Sequence record: PZ534511.1
Length of the DNA stretch: 64,000 nt
Strand: one strand, 5' to 3'
Origin: a phage
Both the position numbers and the translations under genes were made by a program. The stretch's first letter is position 1. Each line of letters opens with the position of its first letter. A model generated the notes under the pieces. It had not been told where the DNA came from and made no database searches. It saw only the letters and a program-made list of their open reading frames with translations. Positions 26,895 through 37,541 of the stretch are shown in pieces.

Positions 26895-27236
26895 CTACTC
26901 AAGGTCTTCAGAGTCAAGCTCAAAAAGAATCAAACTGTGCATGCCTGCAGAGAGATTAACACACCCTGCAACAATAAGGGTTTGATAGTAAGGTCCAGCA
27001 CCCTCAATGTCTTCGTTAAAATCTACAACAAGGTAGTCACCTTTGTTAAAGGTGTATTTGTCCGATGTAAACGCAAAACCTGCCCAGTCTCCTACTGCAG
27101 GATCTTTATCAGTCACCTTTGTTAGCAGTAGATCTTTTTCACGAGATCTTTTAGTAAAATCGTGAATCACAACATTCTTCTCTTCAGGAGTCGGATTGCC
27201 ACACACGTAGTTAACGATATTTCTCCACAAACTCAT
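26895..27236 (-). CDS. hypothetical protein
   Basis: Track ORF 113 aa; start overlaps the stop of the helicase gene. Confidence 0.45.
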   Translation of the reverse strand: MSLWRNIVNYVCGNPTPEEKNVVIHDFTKRSREKDLLLTKVTDKDPAVGDWAGFAFTSDKYTFNKGDYLVVDFNEDIEGAGPYYQTLIVAGCVNLSAGMHSLILFELDSEDLE

Positions 27237-28603
27237 ACGTCCCCCTCTTCTGCTCTGGTTTCAAAATCTTTCCTGACAATTTTGTCTAAGTCAGGGAATG
27301 TTGTATTGTAAAACTCTACGACTCGCGGGTCAACAATAATGTCAACTTCTCTTAGTGGACGCAACAAGTTTATTCCTTGTATTGTCTTAACCCGACTCAA
27401 AGCAACATACGTCATCCCAGGAGAGAAAGCTCCGTTCTTTCCAAGGTCCAGGTTGTAACAATCTAGCGTAAGTCCTTGACTTTTATGAGATGTTACGGCG
27501 TACCCAGATTTCAGAGGAAGTTGCTTGTATGACCCAATCACTACCCTCTCTATAAACTTCTCCATCTTCCTTTCTGCAATGTTGTATCTCTGAGAGGGCT
27601 TATACTCGTTATTCTCCCACAACCTCTGCTCTATGTCAACCTGTGTTCCATCTTCAAGCTCTACCACCACCGCCTTGTTCTTAAATTTAACAATTGTGGC
27701 ACGTGTTCCGTTAACATAATAAGGTACCTTGTGCGTCGGGTCAACATCGTTGGCGGTTATCATAACTTTCATGCCAATTTTCAACTTCATCTCCTGCTCA
27801 ACTGGCAGGGTGGAGGGAAACTTACCCTTCATTTCACCAGTGTATACCTTCTCTGGGGCGTTGATGGCATCATAGAACCTTCTGTTCACTTCCTCTGCTT
27901 GTTTGTTGGTGGCGCAAATTGTGAGAGCGTCTGTTGGTACACCGCCTTTGTAACAGCGAGCATTAAGTTCTGCTACAACCTCTTTTATGCGACGACCCTC
28001 ACGAACACAGTTGAGCATTGTGGCAAATCGAATAGACTCCTGTCGGAACTGATCTACTAAGGCTATGTTGTGGAGGTCAAGCTCTTTCCAAGATTCGGTA
28101 TAGCAACACAGGTCCGTATGGTAGAAGTTGAAGTAGGCTTCCTTCTCCATAGAAGAGACAACAGGAGGTGCCTGGTAAAAATCGCCAAACAATATGACCT
28201 GTATGCCTCCGAAAGGTTTGTCATTTTTTCGAAGGAAGCGGAGTTTCCTATCCATCTCTATAAACTTATCAGCACGGATCATAGAGATTTCATCGATAAT
28301 CAGGATGGTAAATGCCTTGCTTTTCAAAGGCTTTGCTGTTTTTGCCCTTATTGCGGTCCAGTCTGACTCCATGCTCACACCTGCTGCAAGATCGAAGGTT
28401 CGGTGTGCTGTTGCTCCATTAACGTTTAAAGCGGCTACCCCTGTCGGGGCAACCGTTATGCAAGAGTCTCCATACATTGACTGGATCATGTTGATGAGAT
28501 ACGTCTTCCCACAACCTGCAGGTCCTGAAACGAAGACATTCTCACCACTCATGATTGCAACGAGGGCAGCATCTGTGCCTACATCATACTGCCCTTTTTC
28601 CAT
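27233..28603 (-). CDS. Dda/PIF1/RecD-like superfamily 1 DNA helicase
   Basis: Walker A GPAGCGKTY near the N-terminus; Walker B-like IIDEISM; size and position typical of phage Dda-like helicases. Confidence 0.7.
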   Translation of the reverse strand: MEKGQYDVGTDAALVAIMSGENVFVSGPAGCGKTYLINMIQSMYGDSCITVAPTGVAALNVNGATAHRTFDLAAGVSMESDWTAIRAKTAKPLKSKAFTILIIDEISMIRADKFIEMDRKLRFLRKNDKPFGGIQVILFGDFYQAPPVVSSMEKEAYFNFYHTDLCCYTESWKELDLHNIALVDQFRQESIRFATMLNCVREGRRIKEVVAELNARCYKGGVPTDALTICATNKQAEEVNRRFYDAINAPEKVYTGEMKGKFPSTLPVEQEMKLKIGMKVMITANDVDPTHKVPYYVNGTRATIVKFKNKAVVVELEDGTQVDIEQRLWENNEYKPSQRYNIAERKMEKFIERVVIGSYKQLPLKSGYAVTSHKSQGLTLDCYNLDLGKNGAFSPGMTYVALSRVKTIQGINLLRPLREVDIIVDPRVVEFYNTTFPDLDKIVRKDFETRAEEGDV

Positions 28604-29808
28604 TACGCCTCCTCGTAAAGAATGTCGATAGTGTTACCGTCACGATCAACTACATATTCAATAGGGTCTCCATCTTTGCGTGCTTCCGGAGCTACCACAA
28701 TCTCATAGCGGCATGCACGGCACTTAGCGCTATTGTGTTGGTATGGCACACTAACCACATCTGCAGGGTCAACCATAACAGTCATTACAGTGCCGTAGCT
28801 CTTTGCATACTCTTTGCTGGCGCAGTGTAAGCCATAAGAGCACGCAGCTTCCGGATCATCCTCTACAAAGTTACGAGGCATGGATACAAAAGCCCCCTGG
28901 TATTGTGGAACTTTACCACTGTGCCAATCCACCCACTTGCTGCCGTTAAACTGAACCCCTTTGTAGCAAATGATTCGACCATCTTCTGCAATCTGGATAT
29001 CGTTGGCCTGCATAAAATCGTAGAGCATGTTTACAGATTTTGCAGAAGGATTGCGCAGCAGGCGAACGAGGAATTTCACATAGCGGTCATCCAGTGTTCC
29101 GTCTGCATAATCTTTCTCAATTTTCTTTGCAATGGTGGATCGCATCTCTACACCGTAGTAGTAGAGCTTACCATCTTTCATGACCAGGTTGTCTGCAAGT
29201 GTGGTGAACTCATTCTTGCGTTCCAGCCAGACAAGGATTTCACCAATTGCCTCATCATATTCCTGAACAGAGATATGGTCGAAGACTTTCTGGTAAACTT
29301 CCTCACTTTCGCTGCGGCGAATTTCAAAAATGCCTTCGTTGCAGGTGATCTGGAGGAGTTCCCCACAAATAACTACCAAAGGCTCAATACTTCGAGTCTG
29401 TTGCTGAGATACGCTGCTCACCACCTCCAGCACCGGATCTTTGACTTCTACTAAAGGTTCTTCTGACTTGATTGCTACCCCAGTGAACCCCACACCATGA
29501 ACAACACACAGTGGGTATACCACGCCCCAACGTTTAACGGACCCTTCGCCTAAATCTAAGATCATGGCGTACTTACCGTTATCTTCCAGACCGTATCGAA
29601 ATAAACGGGCCTCTTCGCGGGTTTCAAAATCCTCACGGGTGTAGCAGACGCTGTCACGGTCAGGATCGAACAACTCTGGGGCACCAACTGCCAGTGTCCA
29701 GGTTGTGTCGCCTTTCTCAATGGCACATGTGAAACCCTTCTTCTCAAGTTCTGCACGGCGGTCTCGTGCTTCTTTACGGGTTTTGAAATGTTCGTAGATG
29801 AAAATCAT
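28603..29808 (-). CDS. hypothetical protein (possible rIIB-like partner of the adjacent GHKL ATPase)
   Basis: Track ORF 401 aa immediately downstream of the rIIA-like gene; assignment by synteny only. Confidence 0.35.
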   Translation of the reverse strand: MIFIYEHFKTRKEARDRRAELEKKGFTCAIEKGDTTWTLAVGAPELFDPDRDSVCYTREDFETREEARLFRYGLEDNGKYAMILDLGEGSVKRWGVVYPLCVVHGVGFTGVAIKSEEPLVEVKDPVLEVVSSVSQQQTRSIEPLVVICGELLQITCNEGIFEIRRSESEEVYQKVFDHISVQEYDEAIGEILVWLERKNEFTTLADNLVMKDGKLYYYGVEMRSTIAKKIEKDYADGTLDDRYVKFLVRLLRNPSAKSVNMLYDFMQANDIQIAEDGRIICYKGVQFNGSKWVDWHSGKVPQYQGAFVSMPRNFVEDDPEAACSYGLHCASKEYAKSYGTVMTVMVDPADVVSVPYQHNSAKCRACRYEIVVAPEARKDGDPIEYVVDRDGNTIDILYEEA

Positions 29809-29818
29809 CTTGGTCTCC

Positions 29819-31801
29819 TTATTTGATGTTATTCTTTGTATCGATCAGTTCACGGTATTCAATCATAGCAGGAGTGTCCCAATATTTCAAGCCTACATGC
29901 TTCAAAAGTGGGTATTTCTTTTCCAATCTTGCAATATAGGCCTTCCCGCATTTAACTCGGTTGGCGATTAAGATTTTGGCACGATGATTTAGCTCACTGT
30001 GCTTCCACGCGGTGTTACCTTCCCACTTGTGGAAATGTGGCCGATAATTTCCAAAATCTTGCATGGGAATAATTTTCCCTAATTGTCTATACAGGCTGTC
30101 ATATGAAGTTTCATTTGCTGCGCGAGTCAGTAAGAATTTCCAAGCATCCTCTTTCAACAAATGTTCCACATTTTTCTCTGTAACATACTGGCAATCAGGA
30201 TCAGTCCAAAGCAGACGGGATTCTGATACCAGGTACAGGTCTTCCCCTTCAGGAATCTGGAGTGCCGCACGCACACGGTCATAATTTTGCTGGTAGATGT
30301 TACTCAGCTGTCCCAGCCAACAACTTCCACGTTGGATATCACCTTCATAAGGAATGCAGTGCTTAATCTTCTTGAACTCTGCCTTAGTAATACGTTCACG
30401 ACGGAAGTAACCATCCTTCTCAAGCTTTTTAACCCAATAACCTGGCTCGTAATGAGTTTTTGTTTCACCTTTCTTCGCAGGTCGGCGAGGGAGCTCTGAT
30501 AACAATTTGACAGTATCTGCAAAGAACGGATGGTGTGCCGCCTCTTTAAACTCTTTCACTAGATCCGTATTCCGGCAATAGAAAACGTTGCGTCCGGTGA
30601 TTTCGCTTAAATAGTTACACTTATTTCGGTTATATTTGCCATCTCCGTCGTTAAATACAAGGTATACACCTCGTAAGAACTCCGACTTTCCGTAACGAGC
30701 ATAGCCTATGCGGCCTTTATTTAAGCCTCCAGCGAAAATTTCACAATCGCCTAAGTCGCCAAGCCCTGTTTCTTCCCATCTGTCCCACATAAAATTCTTA
30801 CCGAAGATGTGCCCGAACACTCCACTGTTCTTCATCATCTCACGTGCTTCTGAGGATGTTTTTGCTGTCTCCAATTCCGCAACAACTTCTGCCCCACGAA
30901 GACGGATACCCTCTTTGACAAAAGCCTCCAGACGCTCTTGGAATCCACCATCGTCGTGCCCCTCTATGGTCCATTCGCGCCCAGGGTTAATATTGCAATC
31001 CCCGATAGGGATCTCTACACAGATTGCAGGGTAGTCTGTCAATGTTTCCAGAAACTTAGAGCGGTAAGGTTGGTGTCCCATCACCACACGGCTCTCATCA
31101 GAGCTGGTATAACCTTTCAGGATGGTCATTTTCCAACCATCCTTCTCGTAGTGATACTGCGCCTCAACCTTATCACCTTCCAGCATCTTACTGGTCATAG
31201 GGTCGGTAACGGTAAACGGAAACTTTGCATAGCGTAGGCATGACGCAATAGCAGTGCGATATTTCAGGACATGCTCTTTCTTAACATGGAACTGAACTTT
31301 TACCCCGTTGTGCTCTTCAGTCTTCCGCTCACGGATCTTGGTAACGTTTGGGATACCCTGATCCAAGAACAATAGATATGTGCTTTCAACACCATTGTGC
31401 ACACTGATAACATCGAAAGTGTCCACCATACTGAACGGAGCCTTTGAACCAACACCTTTATTACCTACCAGAGCGTTGCTGTTGCGCTTGGTTGACTCCC
31501 CGAGATTCATGAAAGTGTTGCGGACCATCTCTTCTGACATGCCCAATCCAACGTCCTGCACAAAGAAGTATGGTTCAAGGTCTGTAGGAGAGTGAATAAT
31601 GATCGGTACATCACCCCGTCCAGACTCAACATGGGAGTCCACGGCATTGAAGATTGGTTCACGGCAGCTTGCCAGCACCTTATCTTCGTAAATCCCTTTA
31701 ATGATTAGCCCAAAAGTCTCTTTGTTCAGAGAAATTGAGCCCCTGGTGACCTCCATATTCCCGGTTAGTACCGCTTTAGTTTCATTACTGTTTACAATCA
31801 T
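29819..31801 (-). CDS. GHKL/HATPase_c-domain protein, rIIA-like
   Basis: Bergerat-fold motifs NAVDSH (N box), QDVGLGMS (G1), GNKGVGSKAPF (G2) in the N-terminal third; 660 aa. Confidence 0.5.
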   Translation of the reverse strand: MIVNSNETKAVLTGNMEVTRGSISLNKETFGLIIKGIYEDKVLASCREPIFNAVDSHVESGRGDVPIIIHSPTDLEPYFFVQDVGLGMSEEMVRNTFMNLGESTKRNSNALVGNKGVGSKAPFSMVDTFDVISVHNGVESTYLLFLDQGIPNVTKIRERKTEEHNGVKVQFHVKKEHVLKYRTAIASCLRYAKFPFTVTDPMTSKMLEGDKVEAQYHYEKDGWKMTILKGYTSSDESRVVMGHQPYRSKFLETLTDYPAICVEIPIGDCNINPGREWTIEGHDDGGFQERLEAFVKEGIRLRGAEVVAELETAKTSSEAREMMKNSGVFGHIFGKNFMWDRWEETGLGDLGDCEIFAGGLNKGRIGYARYGKSEFLRGVYLVFNDGDGKYNRNKCNYLSEITGRNVFYCRNTDLVKEFKEAAHHPFFADTVKLLSELPRRPAKKGETKTHYEPGYWVKKLEKDGYFRRERITKAEFKKIKHCIPYEGDIQRGSCWLGQLSNIYQQNYDRVRAALQIPEGEDLYLVSESRLLWTDPDCQYVTEKNVEHLLKEDAWKFLLTRAANETSYDSLYRQLGKIIPMQDFGNYRPHFHKWEGNTAWKHSELNHRAKILIANRVKCGKAYIARLEKKYPLLKHVGLKYWDTPAMIEYRELIDTKNNIK

Positions 31802-32298
31802 TTATTGCGCTCCTTGTAGTAGATATGGCTCCCGAATTGAGCTGTCCTCTGCATCTTTTTTGCCCATTTCGGTCGTACTTTGGTTGTATGGTAGTGTGTT
31901 GCTCCACCTGTTATGTCCATAGCCATGTATGCAACATGGTTGTTATTATAGACCTTTAGAAGCATCTTTGCAAGACTTTTAGCGTGATCCCATGAATCTT
32001 TTTCTGTCACCTTAAAAGTTTTGCCGTGGTTTGTCCACGAAAACTGGTTAGGTTGGTAGACAATCTTTCTTATAGTGTCTGGGTATTTAGGGTGGGATTT
32101 CCTGTTTAGTGTGGCAAACCCAGATGCCAGCATACCCATCGTGCCATCTCCTCTAGCTTCCCTGTAGATATTGCATGCCAGAATGTTTTCCTTAGTATCT
32201 GATGGCTTGCAAGTATGATATACTTTTTGTTTTGGTGCTGCAACAACAGGCAGCGATAAAAGTGCGCTCAAAATAATAGCAAAGATCTTAATTTTCAC
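31798..32298 (-). CDS. SleB/CwlJ-family cell wall hydrolase with N-terminal signal peptide (candidate secreted endolysin)
   Basis: Signal-like N-terminus MKIKIFAIILSALLSLPVVAAP; motif NIYREARGDG..LNR typical of the SleB hydrolase family. Confidence 0.55.
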   Translation of the reverse strand: MKIKIFAIILSALLSLPVVAAPKQKVYHTCKPSDTKENILACNIYREARGDGTMGMLASGFATLNRKSHPKYPDTIRKIVYQPNQFSWTNHGKTFKVTEKDSWDHAKSLAKMLLKVYNNNHVAYMAMDITGGATHYHTTKVRPKWAKKMQRTAQFGSHIYYKERNK

Positions 32299-32330
32299 AA
32301 TGACTCCAAATAGAAAATCCCCGCCGAAGC
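32295..32330 (-). terminator. rho-independent terminator (minus strand)
   Basis: Minus-strand hairpin CCCCGCTTCGGCGGGG followed by ATTTTCTATTT. Confidence 0.55.
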
Positions 32331-32347
32331 GGGGGAGGTCTTAGAAA

Positions 32348-32776
32348 TTAATCGTAGTGTGCCAAAATCTCTCCATCGTTGCAAGTTCCCTCTACAAAGT
32401 TATGAAGATTCATGCACTCATCTTGATAGAAGAATTTACCGCTTTTCAGCCGTAGGCCAAACAACTCCGCATCTCCACGATGGCAAGCCTCTACAAGTTC
32501 ATAGATTTCATACGGCAACTCTCCGTCGTCATGGAAGAATCCAGCCTTATCGTTGACATAAATGAAGAAATAATCACTGCTATCGCAAGCGTCCAATATT
32601 TTAAACCAGACTTCATCTACATCTTTTTCTCGGATATCGATCACGCAAGTGGAGCTGCATTCGTACTCCTTCTCCGGCTCCTCGGTCAATACCACCAGGT
32701 AGTTTCCCCGCTTACCTACTTTAGCCATACAACCCCCCTTAAGCTTTAGCCAAAATGGCGCTAAACTCTTCACCAA
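32348..32776 (-). CDS. hypothetical protein
   Basis: Track ORF 142 aa. Confidence 0.45.
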   Translation of the reverse strand: MVKSLAPFWLKLKGGCMAKVGKRGNYLVVLTEEPEKEYECSSTCVIDIREKDVDEVWFKILDACDSSDYFFIYVNDKAGFFHDDGELPYEIYELVEACHRGDAELFGLRLKSGKFFYQDECMNLHNFVEGTCNDGEILAHYD

Positions 32777-33923
32777 ACTCTTTTACAATCTTCATCAGGT
32801 TTGGGTATGCTTTGATCAGCTGAGCAACAATCTTGTCACGCCCTTTACCGATAAGCAAGGCATTTCCTAAGGCATTAGGTTTCATCATCGCCATAAAGAC
32901 TGAGAATACAAAATCTCGGTTCTCGTCCTTGAAGTTTTCCCAAAGGAAATCGAGGAAGTTTGCCACGCAGCTGACAAGATCTTCGTCTGAGATACTTGCA
33001 TTTTCCATCATATTGCGAATAGCGATACAACCTTCAGATCCAAGAATCCACAAAATGTCTGGCTGCTTAGGACCTACGTATTCTTTGCAGCCACCTGCCA
33101 TAATCCGACCGATTTCCGGTAAATTACGTTTCTTGGTGTGGTAAGTCCAGATCTCTACCGCTGCAGTGTGACCAATAGCACCTTGTAGAAGAACACGGGC
33201 CATAGCGTCAGAAATAATACCGCTGTCAAAATCGTGCAAGATGTCAGATGCAGCAACCCAAGATCGTGGTGTGGCAAAAGATGGACAATTAATCTCAGCC
33301 ATAGCCTCATAATTATCAATAGCTGATGGAACTCTTTTCAGATACCCAATTACAGAGGAGTGAACCCCGTTGAGGAATGCGTAGTCCTCAATAAACACCT
33401 CTGCATTGCTTGTAACCTCTACAATGATAAAACGGTTAGCCAGAGGGGCTTCGAGCGCCGAAAGAACCGCACCATCTGTAGAACGGTTACCCGCAGCCAC
33501 AAAAACAGAACCTTTAGGGAATGCATAGGTGCCGCACTTGTGGTCAAGCATAATTTGCATTGCAACCTTTTGCAGGTAGTTATCTGCATGAGTGAGCTCA
33601 TCCAGAAAGATAATTCCGCTCCAGTCAGGATCCGCAGGCCAAAATTCTGGAATTGCAAACACTGTACGTGTAGTTCCATCCGCTTCTACAGGGATAGGTA
33701 GCCCAGATAAGTCGGCAGGATCTTTATCTGACAGTCGCACGTCAACAAGGTTGTCATCTCGCTCACCGAACATATTATCAGCGATCTGCTTCATCACCTG
33801 GCTTTTACCCACACCCATTGGTCCCAAAATTAGGACAGATCGGCTATGACGTTGGGCAAACTGAATAATAGCTGGCAACTCACGGACAGTGATTTGACCA
33901 CTTTCGAATACGTTTCTTGACAT
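32739..33923 (-). CDS. MoxR-like AAA+ ATPase
   Basis: Walker A ILGPMGVGKSQ; Walker B IIFLDELTHAD; size about 390 aa. Confidence 0.65.
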   Translation of the reverse strand: MSRNVFESGQITVRELPAIIQFAQRHSRSVLILGPMGVGKSQVMKQIADNMFGERDDNLVDVRLSDKDPADLSGLPIPVEADGTTRTVFAIPEFWPADPDWSGIIFLDELTHADNYLQKVAMQIMLDHKCGTYAFPKGSVFVAAGNRSTDGAVLSALEAPLANRFIIVEVTSNAEVFIEDYAFLNGVHSSVIGYLKRVPSAIDNYEAMAEINCPSFATPRSWVAASDILHDFDSGIISDAMARVLLQGAIGHTAAVEIWTYHTKKRNLPEIGRIMAGGCKEYVGPKQPDILWILGSEGCIAIRNMMENASISDEDLVSCVANFLDFLWENFKDENRDFVFSVFMAMMKPNALGNALLIGKGRDKIVAQLIKAYPNLMKIVKEFGEEFSAILAKA

Positions 33924-35525: not shown

Positions 35526-36421
35526 ACCCTCGCATAAATTAAACTTGTATCAGTATACTTCTTTAATGGGTAAATATCCTGTCCATAGATGCAATCATTA
35601 AACACCTCATCTACCCAAAGGCTACACTTATATCCCATCATTTCTAAAACACCCATCTCTTCTTCGGTAAACTTATCACCGCTCTTGCAAGATGTCAATA
35701 CCTCATTCTGAACTCTTGCTACCTCGAAGCGGTTATTGGCAATATCGCTATTGGCGATCAAATACTCACCTAGAGGGTGTGCGGCATTAAAGATGCACAG
35801 CGGACGGCTGACGTAATAGTCTCCAGGTGTATAAAAATTGTTGAGGTCTTTCACTAGAACATTCTTATCAGTCACTTCATTTATAACATCATGCATATCG
35901 CACATCTTTATATGTTTGAGGATTCCATCCCCCATCACAAAATAAAAACTTGCTGAGACACTTTCGGCATAGATCTTACTAGATCCGTTGTAGTTGTATT
36001 TTACTCGGATGCTAACGGGGGTTTTTCCTGTCGCGTTAGCCATCATCCAAAGAAATGGCAGCTCATACTTCTCCTCTGAGGAAACAAAAGGTGAGGTAGC
36101 CAGAGATCGAAAACCTCCAGAGAAGTTGAAAGTTACAGAACCGCTCCGGCGGTATGATACCGCGTATTCTACTTTTATATCGACATACCCATTGGAATAG
36201 GTGTGTCCTTCATTATCTAAATATGTCCACTTATCAGACCCAGATACCAATCTACGCTCAATAACCTTCATCACTATAGGAATTAATGGGTTGGTACAAA
36301 CCGCTTTTGAAGTAGCTTTATCATCTAAAGCCTCGTAAATTGCAGAAAGGATGTCCCCAGCTGAAAGATTGGTTGTTATGTCCTGTTTCCACCGCGTACT
36401 AAAACTGTTAAGATTTGCCAT
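35522..36421 (-). CDS. hypothetical protein
   Basis: Track ORF 299 aa; RBS TAGGAGCAC; promoter TTGACT-17-TATAGT at 36452-36480. Confidence 0.5.
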   Translation of the reverse strand: MANLNSFSTRWKQDITTNLSAGDILSAIYEALDDKATSKAVCTNPLIPIVMKVIERRLVSGSDKWTYLDNEGHTYSNGYVDIKVEYAVSYRRSGSVTFNFSGGFRSLATSPFVSSEEKYELPFLWMMANATGKTPVSIRVKYNYNGSSKIYAESVSASFYFVMGDGILKHIKMCDMHDVINEVTDKNVLVKDLNNFYTPGDYYVSRPLCIFNAAHPLGEYLIANSDIANNRFEVARVQNEVLTSCKSGDKFTEEEMGVLEMMGYKCSLWVDEVFNDCIYGQDIYPLKKYTDTSLIYARV

Positions 36422-36451
36422 AAGTAAGTGCTCCTATGTTAGTTTTCTTTC

Positions 36452-36480
36452 GAATGGGTGCACTATATTGTGGAGTTAGA
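36452..36480 (-). promoter_or_regulatory. sigma70-like promoter (TTGACT-17-TATAGT), divergent partner of the 36504 promoter
   Basis: Read on the minus strand upstream of the 35522..36421 gene. Confidence 0.5.
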
Positions 36481-36497
36481 GTAAAGTCAACACGTTT

Positions 36498-37541
36498 TTG
36501 ATGTTGACATCTGTTGAGACAATTGATACGATTTCTTCACTTACAGAGCACGAGAGACGACTCATGAATCTTGAAAAATATTATACACCAGAAGAGTTAG
36601 AGCGCTTGCTCAAAAAATATAGACGCAAACAGAATAACGCACGGAAACGAGATATAGAGTTCGACCTGTCATGGGAAGAATACCTCCTATTTGGTAAAAA
36701 ACTTTTAGGAGATGGAGTATGCGACTATACCCTTATACCTTTTGACATGCACACAGATGAAAACGGGCTGGGGAATCCTTTCTACCCATCTCTGGAGCGG
36801 ATAGATGATGAAGGTCCTTATGCGGCTGATAACTGTTGTGTGGTGGGATTGAGATGCAACTCTCTAAAGGACTGTCTGGTAGATAAAAAGACTGCAGTCT
36901 TGATTAAAGACGAAACTGATCGAAAAATTGTCCAGCAGATGATGCTCCACCTGAGCGAAGAGCGTATGGAGAAATTGAAAGGTGATTATACTTTTGAAGA
37001 TTTCATCTTGCAATATGGAACGGAAGAGGATAAACTAGCACTCTTTGACGAAGAAGAGGAGGAAGATATGCTACCGATGTCTAAAGTTACTTATCGTGCA
37101 CCCAAGAAGCACATTTCCGACATTGTAAACGAGCCTATCACAGAAGAGATTGAAGAAATGACGCAACAGGTGCATGAAGAGGAAAAAGAGACTCAGGAGG
37201 TCGAAGAGGAGCTTACAGAAGAGGTTCCTGCACTACCTGATGATGTTGAGATTGCCAAAGCTTACACTTTCTATTGTCAAACGTTCTACGATGTAGGTAT
37301 GAAAGTTGATCTGTCATTCAGCCAATTTAAGAGTTCGTATATTCGCAAATGCTGTGCTTTAACTGGTGAACGTCTTGGAGCTGGACTTAAACCCCTGTTG
37401 GTGACCGACTGGAATAAAGGTTTCACTAAAGGAAACTTTATGGTAGTATCTCCAATTATGGAGAAAGCTATGACAGATCTTATGAAGACCACCCGCATGA
37501 CAATGACCGAGTTGGCAGGTATTTTCAAACACGTTAAATAA
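36498..37541 (+). CDS. protein with two tandem degenerate HNH/endonuclease VII-like domains (probable true start about 36564, MNLEKYY...)
   Basis: Internal duplication (DLSWEEY..GVCDYT.. and DLSFSQF..CCALTG..); CxxC..N..CN..K-like remnants; track start is TTG inside the promoter; contains internal MSKVTYRA start-like repeat. Confidence 0.4.
   Translation: MMLTSVETIDTISSLTEHERRLMNLEKYYTPEELERLLKKYRRKQNNARKRDIEFDLSWEEYLLFGKKLLGDGVCDYTLIPFDMHTDENGLGNPFYPSLERIDDEGPYAADNCCVVGLRCNSLKDCLVDKKTAVLIKDETDRKIVQQMMLHLSEERMEKLKGDYTFEDFILQYGTEEDKLALFDEEEEEDMLPMSKVTYRAPKKHISDIVNEPITEEIEEMTQQVHEEEKETQEVEEELTEEVPALPDDVEIAKAYTFYCQTFYDVGMKVDLSFSQFKSSYIRKCCALTGERLGAGLKPLLVTDWNKGFTKGNFMVVSPIMEKAMTDLMKTTRMTMTELAGIFKHVK
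36504..36532 (+). promoter_or_regulatory. sigma70-like promoter (TTGACA-17-TACGAT) driving the plus-strand island
   Basis: Hexamers read directly; overlaps the first codons of the over-extended track ORF. Confidence 0.5.

Follow-up and report, generated by a model that had tools for sequence, protein, structure and literature searches.

A Vequintavirus rIIA-rIIB gene pair with a predicted clamp-type ATPase in rIIA

In this study we analysed a 64,000-nucleotide (nt) stretch of phage DNA from sequence record PZ534511.1 (hereafter the window, meaning the whole stretch) and focused on two neighbouring genes that were identified as homologues of phage T4's genes rIIA and rIIB. Both genes lie on the same strand, and rIIB is located downstream of rIIA after a gap of 10 nt. 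Lengths are given in amino acids (aa).

29819..31801, minus strand: rIIA, an ATG-started open reading frame (ORF) of 660 aa (75.8 kDa, isoelectric point 8.25), matched over its full length by phrog_612
28603..29808, minus strand: rIIB, 401 aa (45.7 kDa, isoelectric point 4.88), matched by phrog_609 (RIIB)

The first-pass annotation of this DNA had described the ORF at 29819..31801 as rIIA-like and had suggested that the adjacent 401-aa gene may be its rIIB-like partner. Profile searches against the two families confirmed both proposals. The rIIA protein aligned through aa 1-658 with positions 1-724 of the 725-position profile of phrog_612 (RIIA; E 1.3e-124), and rIIB aligned through aa 132-375 with phrog_609 (E 9e-62). 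The same two families were the best ones for T4 rIIA (9e-250) and T4 rIIB (6.6e-111). Both profiles were thus matched, decisively so, which answers the objection that neither of them would be hit. When the proteins were compared directly with those of T4 by BLASTP, the first 198 aa of rIIA showed 28% identity to T4 rIIA (E 3e-21), and aa 172-371 of rIIB showed 37% identity to T4 rIIB over 204 aa (E 4e-39). In T4 the two genes (NP_049616 and NP_049889) belong to the same PHROGs and have the same order and adjacency as the pair in the window. Judged from these alignments, the two genes are orthologous to rIIA and rIIB of T4.

The locus DNA was 96-99% identical to that of many Vequintavirus (rV5-like) coliphages, and 121 phage records matched at 90% DNA identity or more; the window is that of a Vequintavirus, an rV5-like Escherichia coli myovirus. 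The rIIA protein was 98% identical to rV5 ORF1, which is annotated as rIIA in record DQ832317 and differs by few substitutions (12 of 660 positions), and the rIIB protein was 99.8% identical to rV5 ORF238, annotated as 'rIIB protector' in the same record. Essentially the same genes, 660 and 401 aa long with the 10-nt spacing, were found in rV5 and in the Vequintavirus phages MaxTheCat, isim, APECc02 and Bas54, and the neighbours were shared as well, with a SleB-like hydrolase gene upstream and a helicase gene downstream. Phage isim and other relatives carry the same rIIA/rIIB annotation. Since the rV5 record and most close relatives annotate rIIA and rIIB, the pair is already known, and its detection here is a correct but ordinary finding.

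The locus was additionally matched by 16 GenBank records of the MG0656xx series that are entitled 'UNVERIFIED: Campylobacter phage' (e.g., MG065662.1, 52791-56989). Fifteen of the 16 state C. jejuni, chicken, as the host, seven listed ones are 96.2% identical, and the single record opened is classified as Vequintavirus by NCBI. To judge from this, the records hold coliphage genomes whose host seems to have been labelled wrongly.

With tblastn, 2,878 phage records from many host genera matched the C-terminal core of rIIB; only 131 of them, essentially Vequintaviruses, matched along the full length of the protein. The order rIIA-then-rIIB on one strand was observed in T4, in the N4-like podovirus Jura, in Streptomyces phage Angela and in Felixounavirus EC6. 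A search of IMG/VR for related loci returned only two near-identical ones, the PADLOC defence-system profiles gave nothing meaningful, and a sequence search of the PDB revealed no relative of rIIA or rIIB beyond marginal matches at chance level.

The N-terminal part of rIIA contains an ATP-binding domain, in which the following elements were recognised.

31208..31750, minus strand: GHKL (Bergerat-fold) domain of the Hsp90-like sequence type, rIIA aa 18-198, supported by Pfam, a PDB profile search and hhalign
31637..31660, minus strand: N-box E48-P-I-F-N52-A-V-D55, with the invariant motif E48xxxN52xxD55
31541..31555, minus strand: G1 box D83-V-G-L-G87, with the invariant motif D83xGxG87
31448..31465, minus strand: G2 box G113-N-K-G-V-G118, the glycines of the ATP lid, with the invariant motif G113xxGxG118

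The Bergerat-fold motifs that had been noticed in the N-terminus were thus all three present, and the alignment showed the N-box, G1 and G2 motifs to be invariant across 28 homologues and T4 rIIA. The Pfam model HATPase_c_3 matched aa 50-147 above its cutoff (E 1.8e-8, 34.9 bits against a 25-bit cutoff). By comparison with characterised GHKL ATPases, E48 would be the catalytic Glu, N52 the Mg-binding Asn and D83 the adenine-binding Asp. When the rIIA family profile was run against the PDB sequences, the best 60 matches all belonged to Hsp90, TRAP1, HtpG or GRP94 (lowest E 6.2e-7), and in hhalign aa 28-198 of rIIA were aligned with residues 15-210 of E. coli HtpG with a probability of 95.8% (E 6.8e-9). 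The NCBIfam scan returned only sub-threshold matches to Hsp90, sacsin and restriction-enzyme GHKL models. By its sequence, the N-terminal domain of rIIA is specifically Hsp90-like. The domain had initially been described as histidine-kinase-like; of this description the GHKL ATP site holds, whereas the histidine-kinase type does not. The pairing with a DHp/HisKA phospho-acceptor domain that characterises the histidine kinase CA domain was not found in rIIA. The ATPase is of the clamp type represented by GyrB, Hsp90, MutL and MORC and is not histidine-kinase-like in the functional sense.

To the C-terminal side of this domain three further features were distinguished.

30767..31207, minus strand: second domain, transducer-like, with three helices after it, rIIA aa 199-345 (approximate boundaries, from the secondary-structure list)
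30974..30979, minus strand: invariant R275-E276 in the loop 'NPGRE', the Arg being a candidate gamma-phosphate sensor; the T4 counterpart is 'APSRE' with R278-E279
29822..30766, minus strand: lineage-variable alpha/beta and helical C-terminal region, rIIA aa 346-660 (from BLASTP and the secondary structure of the AlphaFold2 model)

The Arg-Glu pair of the second domain was invariant in all 29 sequences, T4 included. Thus, T4 rIIA shares with the protein of the window identical GHKL motifs and an S/G-R-E loop near the same position (R278 in T4, R275 here), whereas the overall lengths differ (725 aa in T4 and 660 aa here). Past aa ~198, BLASTP against T4 rIIA found nothing alignable. The S/G-R-E loop resembles the 'N-x-S-R-E' of the Hsp90 family (HtpG, TRAP1, Hsp82 and GRP94), whose N-domain is likewise similar to that of rIIA, and the conserved basic residue of rIIA is Arg, as in Hsp90; the equivalent residue of GyrB and MutL is Lys. 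Other GHL clamps (GyrB/ParE, MutL, MORC and Topo VI-B) differ from rIIA of the window, which is devoid of DNA-binding, TOPRIM, endonuclease and CW/coiled-coil modules. These comparisons suggest that R275 may act as a gamma-phosphate sensor. The identification of the first ~280-300 residues of rIIA as the two-domain module, GHKL plus transducer-like, that is known from dimerising clamp ATPases (GyrB/ParE, Hsp90, MutL, MORC) is robust.

The likeness to Hsp90 could extend over the whole length of rIIA. An AlphaFold2 model built from a 28-sequence alignment had a mean predicted local distance difference test (pLDDT) score of 82.7, and the top 50 Foldseek matches of this model were all full-length members of the Hsp90 family (E ~1e-16, 500-740 aligned columns), with template modelling scores of only 0.33-0.37. 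The sequence comparisons did not reveal the Hsp90 middle and C-terminal domains: the profile of the rIIA middle and C-terminal regions was aligned with the same regions of HtpG at a probability of 0.6% (E 0.097), a second hhalign run with the middle region gave 2% (E 0.024), a profile of the middle region alone had no Hsp90 match in the PDB, and no HSP90 family was reported by the Pfam scan of whole rIIA at E<=0.1. We take the Pfam model in question, HSP90 (PF00183), to cover the middle and C-terminal domains of Hsp90. The best local match between the middle regions of rIIA and HtpG was the catalytic loop 'NVSRE' of HtpG (R336), although it was non-significant (E 0.024-0.097). It is therefore only as a tentative proposal, and one that we hold to be rather less than evenly likely, that rIIA may represent a highly diverged full-length Hsp90-type clamp whose middle domain has a catalytic Arg (R275; R278 in T4) kept unchanged in different phage families, and rIIB a lineage-tuned adaptor with an exchangeable N-terminus. 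Among the papers retrieved for rIIA together with Hsp90, HtpG or GHKL, only PMC7824862 concerned the phage protein, the Hsp90 matches shown being to FcγRIIA; the coverage of this search was incomplete and the novelty of the proposal is unproven.

In EC6 (JX560968; 697..3064 of locus L010), two ORFs of 303 and 494 aa follow one another at the place of rIIA and probably represent a frameshifted or split rIIA. The first of these is annotated as 'molecular chaperone, HSP90 family', and the Hsp90 likeness of the rIIA N-domain has thereby already surfaced in database annotation.

The rIIB protein was divided into three parts.

29509..29802, minus strand: two tandem beta-alpha-beta-beta repeats, rIIB aa 3-100 (first repeat aa 3-42, second 55-100; secondary structure from the AlphaFold2 model), confined to the Vequintavirinae-like lineage
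29386..29508, minus strand: poorly conserved linker, predicted to be disordered, rIIB aa 101-141 (pLDDT below 50 at aa 100-141; gappy, variable alignment columns)
28606..29382, minus strand: conserved rIIB core, rIIB aa 143-401 (BLASTP against T4 rIIB; tblastn)

The two repeats were related to each other in a profile-profile comparison by hhalign (probability 94%, E 1.1e-7) and have in common the motif F-x-[ST]-R-x-[DE]-A-R ... [RK]-W. The N-terminus of T4 rIIB is of another kind, as its aa 7-50 were matched by HTH_7, HTH_28, HTH_29 and Sigma70_r4 (E 5.6e-5 to 3e-3). The Pfam scan found no such N-terminal helix-turn-helix (HTH) in rIIB of the window, and the HTH is a feature of T4 rIIB and not of the whole family. 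The HTH-like start in T4, as opposed to the two repeats and the disordered linker here, implies that the N-terminal module of rIIB has been exchanged between lineages; the lengths of the proteins differ as well (312 aa in T4 and 401 aa here).

In the core, the residues C323-S-x-G-L-H328 and C366 are also present in T4 rIIB. In the Vequintavirinae-like group C363 is additionally invariant, which completes the pattern C-x4-H … C-x2-C (28606..28842, minus strand, aa 323-401). These residues might bind a metal, or they might form a catalytic pair of Cys and His. No significant match to the core was obtained among solved structures, either by sequence or by a Foldseek search of the PDB with the rIIB model, an AlphaFold2 model of moderate quality (pLDDT 72). 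All of the rIIB homologues P0001-P0120 carry the precomputed Pfam assignment PF26926, which was absent from our scan with the Pfam-A copy used; apparently, a Pfam release newer than that copy includes a curated model for this core.

A metagenomic protein of 498 aa (P0005), encoded on a single 3.3-kb contig, combines tetratricopeptide (TPR) repeats with the last 55% of rIIB of the window at 98% identity. This is most likely an assembly chimera and not a real fusion.

The N-terminus of rIIB was also considered as a SPOR domain (PF05036). Whole rIIB scored 19.3 bits against a cutoff of 21 bits, and the isolated N-terminus scored 23.4 bits, covering only positions 12-49 of the 76-position profile. 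Only one of 27 family members matched at E<=0.01, and the Foldseek match to the SPOR domain of CwlC (1x60) was no better than those to de novo EHEE mini-proteins. SPOR membership was rejected because of this single matching relative, the coverage of half of the profile, the structural match at the level of EHEE proteins and the lack of an export signal. Indeed, no transmembrane segment or signal peptide was found in either rIIA or rIIB, with the maximum hydropathy over 19 residues being 0.83 in rIIA and 1.69 in rIIB, the latter within a non-conserved stretch. In classical T4 biochemistry, rIIA and rIIB are both membrane-associated.

The two genes are located within an early/replication gene block, and both are preceded by ribosome-binding signals.

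31810..31815, minus strand: Shine-Dalgarno sequence AAGGAG of rIIA, 8 nt before the start, read from the upstream sequence
29815..29820, minus strand: Shine-Dalgarno sequence AAGGAG of rIIB, overlapping the TAA stop codon of rIIA (29819..29821)

The overlap between the rIIB Shine-Dalgarno sequence and the rIIA stop codon suggests that the translation of the two genes may be coupled. The ATG of rIIA in turn overlaps the stop codon of the upstream gene for a Hydrolase_2/SleB-like cell-wall hydrolase (31798..32298; ATGA), and the stop codon of rIIB overlaps the start of the gene for a PIF1/Dda-like helicase (27233..28603, minus strand). When the region was scanned for promoters and terminators, the counts matched those expected from shuffled sequences, and therefore we do not claim any operon boundaries.

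A strong hairpin rich in GC, CCCCGCTTCGGCGGGG, with a T-rich run after it, was noticed a short distance upstream of the gene for the SleB-like hydrolase (32319..32334, minus strand). From its sequence it could be a terminator between the MoxR block and the block formed by the hydrolase, rIIA, rIIB and helicase genes; the number of terminator-like signals in the region did not exceed that in the shuffles. Farther away, the direction of transcription changes at about 36420..36540, with minus-strand genes extending to 36421 and plus-strand genes beginning at 36498. Back-to-back promoter-like sites were seen there at 36490..36462 (minus strand) and 36504..36532 (plus strand), and the sign of the GC skew flips at about 36 kb, near the strand switch.

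The involvement of rII proteins in resistance to prophage-encoded exclusion, to which the first-pass annotation had pointed, is documented for T4 against lambda RexAB (PMC8594841, PMC10312443, 10.1101/2025.11.20.689424), and its extension to Vequintavirus is by analogy. In T4, rIIA and rIIB are dispensable unless the host carries RexAB, a membrane-depolarising abortive-infection system (PMC8594841; 10.1101/2025.11.20.689424). The rIIB mutants of T6 are sensitive to RexAB. The expression of T6 RIIB alone triggers the CARD/gasdermin system of Lysobacter, and the protein shows toxicity in E. coli (PMC10312443). According to a report on Bas63 (Felixounavirus), this phage needs its rIIA/B genes against QatABCD (10.1101/2024.10.10.617714). 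Those of Bas37 were depleted in one host comparison of the HIDEN-SEQ supplement, the main-text figure showing clinical isolates (10.1101/2025.11.20.689424). It is from T4, T6, Bas37 and Bas63 that a counter-defence role of the pair studied here may be deduced.

The HIDEN-SEQ supplement also covers Bas54, a member of Vequintavirinae in which rIIA (1,983 nt), rIIB (1,206 nt) and the 10-nt gap between them are identical in length and spacing to those of the window. According to the transposon data, both Bas54 genes are 'Non-essential' on E. coli K-12, as 90 of 101 TA sites in rIIA and 56 of 59 in rIIB were disrupted (10.1101/2025.11.20.689424). The rII genes thus behave as accessory genes, as expected. 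Gene order and annotation identify bas54_0063 as the counterpart of the MoxR-like AAA ATPase gene that lies two genes upstream of rIIA in the window (32739..33923, minus strand; phrog_1297, E 2e-110), and bas54_0068 as that of the gene for the PIF1/Dda-like helicase. Both Bas54 genes were strongly depleted on the clinical isolate CFE311 (log2 fold change -7.23 and -6.32; 10.1101/2025.11.20.689424), and the MoxR ATPase has been reported as a requirement for overcoming DS-28, a predicted defence system. Genes for which counter-defence phenotypes were seen in experiments thus lie on either side of the rII pair, although in CFE311 the pair showed none of its own. In Extended Data Table 8 of the HIDEN-SEQ paper, the sheet Data S6 'resampling_K-12_vs_CFE303' carries the CFE311 console line and numbers, identical to those of S7.

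Taken together, we consider it very probable that the locus is the Vequintavirus rIIA-rIIB pair and that it serves as an accessory counter-defence module with a putative ATP-driven clamp, rIIA. The pair would be expressed early as a translationally coupled accessory module, dispensable on naive hosts, and would stop RexAB-type abortive-infection systems, which depolarise the membrane and are often prophage-encoded, from killing the cell before progeny are produced. As the fold and the intact motifs suggest, rIIA would work as an ATP-driven dimerising clamp that binds ATP at E48, N52 and D83 and in which R275 of the second domain closes over the gamma-phosphate. The contribution of rIIB would be its conserved partner domain, and the variable C-terminus of rIIA together with the variable N-terminus of rIIB may determine the factor, of host or prophage, with which the pair engages. 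At the same time, rIIB could be a liability, because T6 rIIB is the trigger sensed by the CARD/gasdermin system.

Several points weigh against this interpretation. The molecular mechanism of rII is obscure even in T4, and the authors of the BASEL study call the locus 'long-known yet poorly understood' (PMC8594841). The counter-defence phenotypes come from other phages and not from the rII pair of a Vequintavirus; moreover, the single Bas54 host comparison that could be used, K-12 versus CFE311, showed no depletion of rIIA (log2 fold change -0.01, adjusted p 1.0) or rIIB (log2 fold change -0.34, adjusted p 0.84; 10.1101/2025.11.20.689424). At the level of the proteins, ATP hydrolysis, dimerisation and the formation of an rIIA-rIIB complex are all things that we infer, and the reading of R275 as the GHL gamma-phosphate sensor rests on the conservation of the motif and on the order of the structural elements. 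Finally, the C-terminal 460 aa of rIIA and the N-terminal 140 aa of rIIB differ from those of T4, and therefore the targets may differ too.

Three other explanations were weighed and found to be less well supported. The GHL fold is shared with proteins acting on DNA (GyrB/ParE, MutL, MORC), and rIIA could likewise be a DNA-acting clamp that together with rIIB organises or anchors the replicating phage DNA, with the evasion of defence being a by-product. However, both genes are dispensable in T4 and, on K-12, in Bas54, unlike core replication genes; the Pfam and NCBIfam scans detected a DNA-binding domain in neither rIIA nor rIIB of the window; the HTH of the T4 rIIB N-terminus is missing here; and the N-domain of rIIA is closest in sequence to Hsp90 and not to topoisomerases or MutL. 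We regard this explanation as improbable, although it survives better than the other two.

It is less probable still that the pair directly sets the time of lysis, possibly in concert with the upstream SleB-like hydrolase, the stop codon of whose gene overlaps the start of rIIA. Both families bear the PHROG and GenBank label 'lysis inhibitor', and SPOR, which was weakly matched at the rIIB N-terminus, is a peptidoglycan-binding domain. However, the label is historical; T4 requires rII solely in the presence of RexAB (HIDEN-SEQ, 10.1101/2025.11.20.689424), and the SPOR match was confined to one of 27 family members and half of the profile. In addition, neither protein has a signal peptide or transmembrane segment with which to reach the cell wall, and in Bas54 the SleB-like gene is non-essential, whereas the separate 'endolysin' gene bas54_0202 is free of transposon insertions.

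The least probable explanation, according to which rIIB is a transcription factor modulating the phage programme, as has been proposed for T4-type rIIB from the comparative genomics of jumbo phages, and rIIA its ATP-dependent regulator, agrees with the classification of rIIB orthologues as specific transcription factors (PMC7824862) and with the consistent HTH matches at the N-terminus of T4 rIIB, but rIIB of the window begins with two beta-alpha-beta-beta repeats in place of an HTH, and what the 2,878 phage records have in common is the C-terminal core and not the HTH.

As a result of scanning a genome, the recognition of the Vequintavirus rIIA-rIIB pair adds nothing new. Its residual value is as a point of comparison for a famous problem, the molecular action of rII. 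Some freshness lies in the clamp-ATPase architecture with its invariant Arg-Glu loop and in the swap of the N-terminal module of rIIB. If the tentative view of rIIA as a diverged full-length Hsp90-type clamp were true, the rII problem could be approached as that of an ATP-driven machine which disarms abortive-infection effectors by remodelling or sequestering them. The two-domain, clamp-like appearance of rIIA, the conserved C-terminal core of rIIB and its lineage-swapped N-terminus can all be tested experimentally.

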